A stretch of 32,000 bases of DNA from Candidatus Saccharimonadota bacterium (lineage in GTDB: Bacteria; Pseudomonadota; Alphaproteobacteria; CAJXXZ01; 1604HC): positions 120,001 through 152,000 of the forward strand of contig NZ_CP043315.1 of assembly GCF_008189285.1 (NCBI RefSeq), in the 5' to 3' direction. Both the position numbers and the translations under genes were made by a program. Below the pieces are notes generated by a model that saw only the letters and a program-made list of their open reading frames with translations, did not search any database and was not told the origin of the DNA. Positions 26,057 to 30,096 of this stretch are shown here, piece after piece. How positions within the stretch are numbered: position 1 is the stretch's first letter; every line of letters begins with the position of its first letter.

Positions 26057-26878
26057 TTATGTGTTTGTAAATTTCTTGCTCTTCTTTGCTGAGATTAAAA
26101 AATTTACTGTAGTTTTGGCATTTGCAATCTTCAATGCAATTTTCAGATACTTTTCATAATCACATATGCCAGGTTCACCAACTACTGCTGATGCTCCATC
26201 ACTGCCAAGTTTTCTAAATCTTTTGCCAATGTTGCGACATATATAATCATCGTAATCATCATTTCGAAATTTATAATCAATTTTCAAAGTATCAATTTTC
26301 ATGCCAGATGGTATAATATTCATTTCACTAAATCCATTTATTCCTATCTCCAACTTTTCAATAGGAGCATTAAAAATAATTGATAATAGAAAATGAGGAA
26401 TACTTTTTGATATATCTAAAGCTCCTACACTTTCTCCACTTATTGCATAACCTCCATTGTAACCTTCTGATATTATGTTCCAGACTTCGCCTGGCTCTCC
26501 GTCAAGAATTCCTTCCATTTTACTGCAAGATATTTCATCCATGATTTGCTTTCCTAGATGTTGATCAATGCCACCTTTTATAGCATCTTCACTGATATCC
26601 ATGTGAAGTAGCTTAAATGCATTTGCTTGAGTGCAATTGCTCATCCTTACATCATCAGTGTTATATAGTTTAGATTTTAATTCATAAGTTACAGATAAAA
26701 ACATCATAATAGCATTTATGTTTATCGTATTAGTTCCTGGTTGGCATAGATCTTTAAATGAACTTAATGCAGATTCTCTAGCTTTGGAATATTCCATCAC
26801 TTCAAAAGTGCAATTAATATTAGACATACTTGCTAAAATAGCGCATGACAATATAGTGCTTTGCAGTTTGTTTAACAT
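26057..26878 (-). CDS. Hypothetical, probably secreted protein; N-terminal 192 aa identical to the 443-aa paralog
   Basis: 273 aa with a signal-peptide-like N-terminus MLNKLQSTILSCAILASMS. Residues 1-192 are identical to ORF 29522-30853. The last 81 aa are unrelated to it. Confidence 0.8.
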   Translation of the reverse strand: MLNKLQSTILSCAILASMSNINCTFEVMEYSKARESALSSFKDLCQPGTNTININAIMMFLSVTYELKSKLYNTDDVRMSNCTQANAFKLLHMDISEDAIKGGIDQHLGKQIMDEISCSKMEGILDGEPGEVWNIISEGYNGGYAISGESVGALDISKSIPHFLLSIIFNAPIEKLEIGINGFSEMNIIPSGMKIDTLKIDYKFRNDDYDDYICRNIGKRFRKLGSDGASAVVGEPGICDYEKYLKIALKIANAKTTVNFLISAKKSKKFTNT

Positions 26879-26889
26879 GATTTATTTAT
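26304..26889 (-). repeat. Left arm of a 586-bp inverted repeat flanking gyrB
   Basis: It is the reverse complement of 29511-30096, with paired positions summing to 56400. I found 4 mismatches. Confidence 0.97.
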
Positions 26890-27050
26890 AGCAATTAATT
26901 TTACATTCTTAAAGCAGTATATTTGTATAAGATGCAAAAATGTTTAATAGAATTTTTCATAACTTTCATAATTTATAAATCAAATTTTTTAAATACAAAA
27001 AATCCTTTGAGAAGATTTGCTCTTGAGAAATTTATTAAATTGCAGAAGTG

Positions 27051-29339
27051 TTAGCTATCAAGTTCAGCGTATACTGCGTTTTTCTCAATAAATATACGTC
27101 TTTCTTCAACACTTTCACCCATCAAATCTATGCAAATCTTATCTGCTTCATCAATGTGATCAACTGTTACCTGAACATATGATTTCATAGCCGTTTCACT
27201 TAAATCTTCAGGATTCATTTCTCCAAGACCTTTGTATCTTTGTATTGTTAACCCTTTTCTTCCCATAGTTAAACATGAATCATAGAATTTTACTGGATCC
27301 TCTGTCCAAATTTTAGACCATTTATTAGTAAATTTAGATAAATGTTGGAAATCACCACCTCCAATAGATTTAATGTCGAATTTTGTTACCTCAGAAACTC
27401 CATTGTCATTCCATTCCAAACTCCATTCATGTTCTGAAAATTGCACTGTCCATTTTTCGCTATCCAAATATTCTACTAAACGAGCTCCATGAACATCTTG
27501 TTCAATTTTCTCACCATCAAATATTTTTGCAGCAAGAAGCATTTGCATAATTGGAGATTTATTCTTAAGAATTTTCTTAATGTTAAAAATATCTTGCAAA
27601 TAATCATTTAATTCATGTCCTGTTAAAACATAATCCCCTTGCTTAAATTCTTTATCAGATAAGATTCTCAAAATATAAGAATTCAAAGCATCTTCATCAC
27701 GAACATATGTAAATTTACCTTGCCTTTTAATTCCATACAATGGAGGTTGAGCTATATATAAATACCCTCTATCAATCATAGGCTTCATATACCTGAAGAA
27801 AAATGTTAATAGCAAAGCTAAAATATGCTTTCCATCAACATCAGCATCAGTCATGATAATGACTTTGTGATACTTTATTTTATCTATATCAAAATCTTCT
27901 CCAATGCTTGTTCCTAACGCAGAAATTAAAGTAGTTATTGCAGCGGAGCTAAGCATTTTATCAAATCTTGCCTTTTCTACATTCAATATTTTTCCTCTTA
28001 AAGGCAAAACAGCTTGCACAAATCTATTTCTGGCCTGCTTAGCAGAACCACCAGCGCTATCACCCTCTACCAAGAATAATTCACATTTTGCTGGGTCTTT
28101 TTCAGAGCATCCTGCAAGTTTTTTAAGAACTTGGAAATCAATCCCTGTTTTTTGTTTTCTGCTCATATCACGAGCTTTTCTTGCAGCCTCTCTAGCTGAT
28201 GCTGCACTTAAAATTCTTGGAATGATTGTTTTCGCAACTTGAGGTCTCTCTTCAAACCATTCGCTCACTTTTGCATAAATAGCATGCTCCACAGCTGTTC
28301 TTACATGTGATGAAACAAGCTTTTCCTTGGTTTGAGATGAGAATTTAGGATCTACTACATTAACAGAAAGCACACATACAACACCTTCTCTAACATCATC
28401 ACCAGTAATGCTAACTTTTTGTTGCGTTTTTGATCCATTTTCTTTCAAATAATTTTGAACAGCTCTAGTTAGTCCGCTCCTGAAACCCATTGTATGAGTT
28501 CCTCCATCACGCTGTGGGATTGTGTTTGTAAAAAACAAAGAAGATTCATGGTAGCTGTCAGTCCACATTATCGCGCATCTCATAGACACTTCATCGCCAT
28601 CTTGCTTGATGCTTATTATTTCATCATGCAAAGGCTTTTTTCTTTTTGCAAGAAACTTAACAAATGAAGATACTCCGCCTTCATCGAAAAATATATCCTC
28701 AGTGATTTCTTCTGCCCTTTGATCAATTAATGCAACTCTAACGCCTGGATTCAAAAATACTAACTCTTGAAATCTATTAGCTAATTCTTTTTTTACAAAA
28801 ATAATTTCACTAAAAATTTCATCATCAGGGAAGAAATGTATTTTTGTTCCTGTTTTCTTTGATGGGCCAGACACATGTAAAGGCTTTACTGTTTTTCCTC
28901 TGTTAAATTCAATGATATGTTCATTTCCATCTCTGCCTATAGTCACAACCATCCATTGTGATAGCGCATTAACTACAGATGCACCAACTCCATGTAATCC
29001 ACCAGAAATTTTATAAGTATTTTGAGAAAATTTACCACCAGCATGCAATTGGGTCATAATGACCTCAGCAGCAGACATCTTTTCTCCCTTATGCTGATCA
29101 ACTGGAATTCCTCTACCGTCATCTTGAACAGAGACAGATCCGTCTTTATGCAAAATAACCGTAACATTTTTACAATAACCAGCTAATGCTTCATCAATAG
29201 AGTTATCTACAATTTCATAAACCATATGATGCAATCCATGCCCATCATCAGTATCTCCAATATACATTCCCGGACGTTTACGAACTGCTTCAAGGCCTTT
29301 TAAAACCTGTATCGAATCTGCGCTGTAATTATTGTTCAC
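27051..29339 (-). CDS. gyrB: DNA gyrase subunit B
   Basis: 762 aa. GHKL ATPase N-terminus [36 protein letters not shown], Toprim motif [29 protein letters not shown], and a C-terminal [12 protein letters not shown]. The start is GTG at 29337-29339. Confidence 0.97.
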
Positions 29340-29510
29340 ACTACTATCTTACTGCTATATAGGAATTTTTCCAACAGATTTATTATTATGCTATGTAAAT
29401 TTAAGCATTTTAATATAAATTATACAAAAAAAGAAAGAAATCAGCCTCAATAATCAAAAATATAAATCAAAATATTCAGATTTCCTTGACTAATTTTTTA
29501 AATTGAATTA

Positions 29511-30096
29511 ATAAATAAATCATGTTAAACAAACTGCAAAGCACTATATTGTCATGCGCTATTTTAGCAAGTATGTCTAATATTAATTGTACTTTTGAAG
29601 TAATGGAATATTCCAAAGCTAGAGAATCTGCATTAAGTTCATTTAAAGATCTATGCCAACCAGGAACTAATACGATAAACATAAATGCTATTATGATGTT
29701 TTTATCTGTAACTTATGAATTAAAATCTAAACTATATAACACTGATGATGTAAGGATGAGCAATTGCACTCAAGCAAATGCATTTAAGCTACTTCACATG
29801 GATATCAGTGAAGATGCTATAAAAGGTGGCATTGATCAACATCTAGGAAAGCAAATCATGGATGAAATATCTTGCAGTAAAATGGAAGGAATTCTTGACG
29901 GAGAGCCAGGCGAAGTCTGGAACATAATATCAGAAGGTTATAATGGAGGTTATGCAATAAGTGGAGAAAGTGTAGGAGCTTTAGATATATCAAAAAGTAT
30001 TCCACATTTTCTATTATCAATTATTTTTAATGCTCCTATTGAAAAGTTGGAGATAGGAATAAATGGATTTAGTGAAATGAATATTATACCATCTGG
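29511..30096 (+). repeat. Right arm of the 586-bp inverted repeat flanking gyrB
   Basis: It begins 11 nt upstream of the ATG at 29522 and ends inside codon 192 (Gly of IIPSG). Mismatches to the left arm are at 29590, 29602, 29941 and 30004. Confidence 0.97.

Follow-up and report, generated by a model that had tools for sequence, protein, structure and literature searches.

A near-identical inverted repeat formed by two copies of an orphan gene around gyrB in Candidatus Cytomitobacter indipagum

Inversion loci such as Hin, Gin, Cin, fimS, the shufflons and hsdS combine short inverted repeats, some tens of bp in length, with a dedicated serine or tyrosine recombinase encoded nearby. The sap homologues of Campylobacter fetus reportedly share a conserved 5' region of about 600 bp, which begins just upstream of the open reading frame (ORF), and carry variable 3' regions; opposed homologues are said to flank an invertible segment, the inversion of which occurs in the conserved 5' regions and is mainly RecA-dependent. 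The sap system possesses 8–9 homologues and a single outward promoter located in the invertible segment, its inversion has been demonstrated, and its surface-layer product is known. Gene conversion between tuf genes has also reportedly been associated with inversions between the copies. In Salmonella, RecA-dependent intrachromosomal gene conversion keeps the inverted copies tufA and tufB near-identical (PMC5485169). In the whitefly endosymbiont Portiera aleyrodidarum, identical repeats found in the diverged paralogues prfA and prfB have been attributed to gene conversion and yield low-frequency structural variants within hosts (Sloan and Moran 2013, PMC3673631). Here, we describe a long inverted repeat that brackets the essential gene gyrB of Candidatus Cytomitobacter indipagum, which belongs to the Holosporales and lives as an endosymbiont in the diplonemid Diplonema aggregatum (10.1101/719211). 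The repeat lies in a 32-kb stretch of its genome (contig NZ_CP043315.1, positions 120,001 to 152,000; hereafter the window, in whose coordinates all positions are given) and is made of the 5' parts of two copies, P_A and P_B, of an orphan gene that we call P. We consider it probable that two old paralogues in inverted orientation have undergone concerted evolution in their 5' block, a process from which inversion of gyrB might occasionally result as a by-product.

Two outward-facing copies of an orphan gene around gyrB

A repeat search of the window retrieved two inverted arms of 596 nt each, 99% complementary and with 2621 nt between them. The arms, the segment that they enclose and the genes concerned are the following (lengths of proteins in amino acids, aa):

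26294–26889, minus strand: left arm, made of 11 nt upstream and codons 1–192 (to about codon 195) of the paralogue P_A
29511–30106, plus strand: right arm, made of 11 nt upstream and codons 1–192 (to about codon 195) of the paralogue P_B
26890–29510, no strand assigned: unique central segment of 2621 nt, with gyrB and its 5' and 3' regions, which would flip on crossover between the arms
27051–29339, minus strand: gyrB, 762 aa, GTG start, with the full set of Pfam GyrB domains and 83% identical to the GyrB of Candidatus Cytomitobacter primus
29522–30853, plus strand: P_B, an intact orphan protein of 443 aa, 100% identical to FZC35_00645, divergent from gyrB and convergent with birA
26057–26878, minus strand: 5' ORF of P_A, 273 aa, FZC35_00635, located on the gyrB strand, 172 nt downstream of that gene, with residues 1–192 as in P_B
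25624–26046, minus strand: 3' ORF of P_A, 140 aa, in another reading frame and homologous to the 3' part of P_B; GenBank annotates 103 aa of it as FZC35_00630

An earlier reading of the window, made from its letters and ORFs without database searches (hereafter the sequence-only reading), had noticed the repeat and placed its arms so that paired coordinates sum to 56400. Base-by-base comparison bore out these coordinates and the number of mismatches: the strict core of 586 nt (26304–26889 paired with 29511–30096) contains exactly 4, at 26810/29590, 26798/29602, 26459/29941 and 26396/30004. It also agreed on the limits of the arms, which begin 11 nt 5' of the ATGs (identity starts at 26889/29511, with the ATGs at 26878 and 29522) and end in codon 192, at the third base of which a fifth arm mismatch is found (26303/30097). 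The chance origin of a repeat of such length and identity is impossible.

The same reading had considered the two sequences unrelated beyond codon 192. This was right for the ungapped comparison, in which the identity of the copies past that codon is at background level (about 17–18/50), but wrong for the genes as a whole, since the 140-aa ORF of P_A is 41% identical to residues 297–443 of P_B (E=1e-26) and a weak similarity runs for about 17 residues past the arm boundary. The two proteins are thus identical over residues 1–192, barely alignable in their middle parts and related again in their 3' domains (41–48% aa identity), with the difference that a frameshift splits P_A into the ORFs of 273 and 140 aa. 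On these alignments, P_A and P_B are homologous over their whole length, but old. The rest of the layout was as previously described: gyrB and its flanks (161 nt 3' and 171 nt 5' of the gene) are the sole content between the arms, according to the ORF list and to Pfam, the gyrB stop codon and the 273-aa ORF are separated by a gap of 172 nt, and the 443-aa ORF is divergent from gyrB.

P has no match in Pfam (at E up to 10), NCBIfam, PADLOC or a PDB sequence search. Its only relatives, both in a word-indexed search of 5.8 billion proteins and in a full HMMER search of 1.84 billion representatives, were the three ORFs of this locus, and P can be regarded on that basis as a species-restricted orphan gene. 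Hydropathy analysis indicated an acidic protein with a weak N-terminal hydrophobic stretch and without transmembrane helix, and a single-sequence AlphaFold2 prediction was unusable (pLDDT 31). These scans yielded no signal, transmembrane or family evidence that would identify P as a surface protein.

Evidence about the history of the two copies comes from the contrast in divergence along their length. Synonymous (dS) and non-synonymous (dN) divergence was estimated by the Nei-Gojobori method. The arms (codons 1–192) have dS 0.044 and dN 0, versus dS 1.03, dN 0.49 and a dN/dS of 0.48 for the 3' ORF of P_A compared with residues 297–443 of P_B. The homologous 3' parts of P_A and P_B thus exceed the arms in synonymous divergence by a factor of about 23. 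For housekeeping orthologues of C. indipagum and C. primus, dS ranges from 1.4 to 1.7 and dN from 0.12 to 0.38. Judging from these values, the duplication that gave rise to P_A and P_B is old and perhaps occurred not long after the split of the two species. The tract of near-identity in these otherwise diverged paralogues takes in synonymous sites as well as the 11 non-coding nt upstream of the ATG, which implies that selection at the protein level does not explain it and that sequence was transferred between the copies. The 5' 596 bp would thus have been recently homogenised by homologous recombination. Diplonemid endosymbionts have been reported to possess the RecA-dependent RecFOR pathway and MutSL (George et al., 10.1101/719211). 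The sequence-only reading had mentioned homogenisation of the arms by gene conversion as an alternative to an inversion switch; the roughly 23-fold lower dS of the arms and the reported presence of RecA and RecFOR in these endosymbionts support it well.

The five differences within codons 1–192 are all synonymous third-position changes. If P_A were a neutral pseudogene, the probability of observing five synonymous changes out of five would be about 0.004 (116 synonymous and 460 non-synonymous sites per copy), which suggests purifying selection on the N-terminal domain of P_A as well as on that of P_B. The 273-aa ORF of P_A may encode a functional product.

The geometry of the locus also has a possible consequence at the RNA level. 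A minus-strand transcript started from birA or from the upstream region of gyrB and running through the antisense of the P_B arm, gyrB and the P_A arm could fold, purely from the arrangement of these elements, into a near-perfect duplex of about 596 bp enclosing the gyrB message.

The gyrB locus of Cytomitobacter primus and the history of the region

The gyrB locus of C. primus has neither a long inverted repeat nor a P gene. The adjacency of birA and gyrB was absent in more distant Alphaproteobacteria, which leaves C. primus as the sole comparator. The gene orders of the two species (with strands; parentheses enclose what is found in the window only) and the additional features that the comparison revealed are the following:

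C. primus gene order: cysS+, X2+, ORF158-, prfA-, hisS-, glyA-, gltX-, birA+, gyrB+, rpsF-like+
Window gene order: cysS+, X2+, hisS+, prfA+, (gyrB fragment-, P_A-), gyrB-, (P_B+), birA-, gltX+
26885–26900, minus strand: 16-mer AATTAATTGCTATAAA, conserved in C. primus, there between gyrB and rpsF
25490–25623, minus strand: gyrB pseudogene fragment of 134 nt, covering codons ~402–447 in the Toprim EGDSAGG region, with indels, directly after the stop codon of P_A
29451–29475, minus strand: possible conserved element upstream of gyrB, with ~20/25 bases matching C. primus

The gltX-birA-gyrB block is kept in both species, with the same orientation of gyrB relative to birA, and P_B is by this comparison an insertion in the birA-gyrB spacer. 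On the other side of gyrB, P_A marks the exact point at which synteny is lost: the gene after gyrB is rpsF in C. primus, whereas in C. indipagum P_A comes next and then prfA. The 16-mer AATTAATTGCTATAAA, a promoter-like sequence just upstream of P_A in the window, is found once per locus in each species, on the gyrB strand, and 0.02–0.06 occurrences per locus would be expected by chance even with one mismatch allowed. The left arm opens with the last 5 nt of this 16-mer. This overlap indicates that the inner edge of the left arm is the junction between ancestral gyrB-downstream DNA and P-derived DNA, and not the arbitrary end of a conversion tract.

The gyrB fragment abutting P_A has 86% nucleotide identity to the resident gyrB and 76% to that of C. 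primus. It is the scar of a partial gyrB duplication or rearrangement that took place in the lineage of C. indipagum. Several rearrangements have struck the locus. Upstream of gyrB, the possible conserved element at 29451–29475 is located ~110–135 nt from the gyrB start in both species, which is weak evidence. The GC skew of the window tracks the coding strand; the counts at four-fold sites (23 G and 13 C in gyrB, 7 G and 13 C in P_B) are too small for strand composition to date the orientation of gyrB.

That P might be related to the C. primus genes located after gyrB was considered and rejected, neither the rpsF-like ORF nor the 394-aa ORF being homologous to it. The first ORF after gyrB in that species (positions 12595–13113 of its locus) is a single frame of 172 aa with a ribosomal protein S6 domain at residues 4–91 and an S18 domain at residues 128–167, and may be an rpsF-rpsR fusion.

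Explanations for the near-identical tract

Concerted evolution would have proceeded as follows. Two old inverted copies of P would have come to flank gyrB in C. indipagum, and gene conversion of the RecA/RecFOR type between them would have kept their first 596 bp near-identical, or recently made them so. The inner limit of the tract would correspond to the end of the P-derived sequence, 11 nt upstream of the ATG, and the outer limit, at codons 192–195, to the point where the copies are too diverged for recombination. Because the copies are inverted, the same recombination makes a flip of gyrB possible: occasional resolution as a crossover would invert the 2.6-kb gyrB segment, as a by-product and not as a regulated switch. 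Among the ORFs of 100 aa or more in the window, none matched a recombinase or invertase family, implying that any inversion would rely on general homologous recombination. Four points weigh against this account. A single assembly is on record in the protein collection, which leaves frequent inversion compatible with the data. The five synonymous differences out of five (~0.004) suggest that both N-termini are functional, which would fit a designed two-isoform system too. The layout is like that of sap in C. fetus, with a conserved 5' block of ~600 bp starting just upstream of the ATG, opposed homologues and variable 3' ends. Finally, the other genomes searched contain no P orthologue through which concerted evolution could be traced phylogenetically.

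The first rival explanation is that one recent event, either a gene conversion or a partial inverted duplication linked to the rearrangements of the region, overwrote the 5' 596 bp of one paralogue with those of the other, and that the arms have been diverging since. This would agree with the sharp bounds of the identical tract on both sides, with the measurable time since the last homogenisation that the five differences represent (dS 0.044), and with the position of the tract in a rearrangement hot spot, where the gyrB fragment abuts the stop codon of P_A and synteny with C. primus breaks exactly at that gene. Nevertheless, a one-off homologous exchange requires a prior similarity of its substrates. 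With 5' parts no closer to each other than the 3' ones (about 60–65% nucleotide identity), RecA-mediated exchange in the presence of MutSL would have been very unlikely. The in-frame join and the residual similarity right after the boundary speak against an illegitimate insertion. We regard such a single event as unlikely, although deserving of some weight.

The second rival is a RecA-dependent flip-flop comparable to that of sap. The sequence-only reading had described the geometry correctly. The two P genes are directed away from the segment, and a crossover between the arms would flip gyrB and swap the 3' variant that is divergent from it with the one that lies downstream. Both P proteins would remain unchanged, and what would be exchanged is the upstream regions of the two 3' variants. 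Inversion would thereby swap the variant driven from the gyrB-divergent region with the one reached by read-through of gyrB, and a protein facing the host would be made in two alternative ratios or forms across the bacterial population. As identity begins only 11 nt upstream of the ATG, any P promoters lie in the invertible part. A scan detected no terminator-like site after gyrB, RecA and RecFOR are reported to be present, both N-termini seem to be under purifying selection (five of the five differences being synonymous), and the dN/dS of 0.48 of the 3' domains indicates that these were not neutral for most of their history.

Against these points, a scan for consensus promoters stayed at background (34 sites versus 31.9 expected), P lacks any family match or transmembrane segment and has only a weakly hydrophobic N-terminus, and the survival of five differences means that the arms have not been homogenised very often. 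The 3' variant of P_A is frameshifted, and thus split, where a sap-type system would have all its 3' cassettes intact. The single assembly on record does not show a second orientation; exact-protein look-ups of gyrB, P_A and P_B revealed no further assemblies or alternative junctions, each cluster having one member on one contig. Moreover, comparing the orientation of gyrB in relatives, which the sequence-only reading had suggested as a check, counts against a switch, given that gyrB has the same orientation relative to birA in C. primus as in the window. We consequently find the flip-flop improbable. Its most elaborate form, a working device dependent on homologous recombination that would re-wire two isoforms (with a shared N-domain and alternative C-domains) of an orphan and possibly host-facing protein between gyrB-divergent transcription and gyrB read-through, we hold to be distinctly improbable. 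An actual or regulated switch, of the two-state kind that the sequence-only reading had envisaged around gyrB, is unsupported: no recombinase is encoded in the window, one of the 3' variants is frameshifted and the gyrB-birA orientation is that of C. primus.

We give almost no credence to an assembly artefact, whether in the repeat itself or in the way the enclosed DNA is oriented. Inverted repeats longer than the insert size do leave short-read assemblers unable to orient what lies between them, but this genome was closed in Unicycler with Nanopore reads and 3423x Illumina coverage (George et al., 10.1101/719211), the orientation of gyrB relative to birA agrees with C. primus, and the five arm differences together with the in-frame continuation into different, truly paralogous 3' sequences make an artefact very unlikely.

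Recombination, other repeats and known systems

Endosymbiont genomes that are highly reduced usually contain few repeats and have a frozen structure. In this context, a tract of 596 bp with dS 0.04 inside paralogues with dS ~1 constitutes direct evidence, from sequence, of homologous recombination still at work within the Cytomitobacter chromosome. Such activity fits the retention of RecA/RecFOR, which was noted but left unexplained in the genome paper (10.1101/719211). The tract is also a standing substrate for the flipping of an essential gene, and marks a hot spot of local rearrangement, as the synteny break and the gyrB fragment attest. Should both orientations coexist, a protist endosymbiont would provide a rare example of phase-variation-like architecture; otherwise, the locus would be a clean and ordinary case of concerted evolution. 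A true flip-flop would amount to sap-like phase variation with an essential gene at its centre, in a genome that has otherwise been called stable.

The window contains several other repeats. A perfect tandem array of a 67-nt unit (10942–11362, the array extending to about 10875–11410; 6.3 copies, 100% identity) is unusual for a repeat-poor genome of 628 kb (628,024 bp). It is intergenic, between argS (11542–13185, minus strand) and a 438-aa ORF of unknown function (9316–10632, minus strand), and had no match in Rfam. A second tandem array, of the 14-nt unit AAAACAGTCAAAAT (511–640; 9.3 copies, 99% identity), is located just downstream of dnaE (719–3859, minus strand). The C. primus locus has an intergenic 40-nt tandem repeat of about 5 copies (20103–20302 of that locus), and tandem arrays thus recur in both Cytomitobacter genomes. 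A 55-nt inverted repeat with 84% complementarity (22293–22347 and 22717–22771) pairs the interior of a 248-aa ORF of unknown function (21944–22690) with the spacer just downstream of it, before hisS. Around 15126–15600, gene orientation changes from all-minus to all-plus at the minimum of the cumulative GC skew, which gives this interval an origin-like look. A replication origin near 15.1–15.6 kb was nevertheless rejected, with 3 DnaA boxes in the window versus 5.1 expected and none in the interval.

Compared with the systems described so far, the P locus combines traits of several. As in tufA/tufB of Salmonella and E. coli, two copies are inverted, and the identical tract includes synonymous sites, as conversion predicts. 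The tuf genes, however, are essential, identical over their full length and hundreds of kb apart, whereas here only the 5' 43% of an orphan gene has been homogenised, the rest being highly diverged, and the copies are 2.6 kb apart around one essential gene. With Portiera, the locus shares a reduced endosymbiont genome and a short tract of identity inside otherwise diverged paralogues. The Portiera repeats, by contrast, are direct, 172 bp long and situated in ancient universal paralogues, in a genome that lacks most recombination genes, while those of C. indipagum are inverted, 596 bp long and situated in an orphan gene, with RecA/RecFOR reported present. The resemblance to sap resides in the opposed homologues on either side of a segment, which share their 5' block and vary at their 3' ends. 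The P locus differs in having only two copies, one of them frameshifted, and in its cargo, which is gyrB instead of secretion genes. Like the site-specific switches, the locus has a segment between inverted repeats whose inversion would change the expression of flanking genes, but each arm consists of 596 bp of coding sequence, and the 32 kb encode no recombinase. The locus is a fresh instance of an already known kind of phenomenon. By analogy, sap would be its closest functional counterpart, and tufA/tufB together with the prfA/prfB pair of Portiera its closest evolutionary ones.

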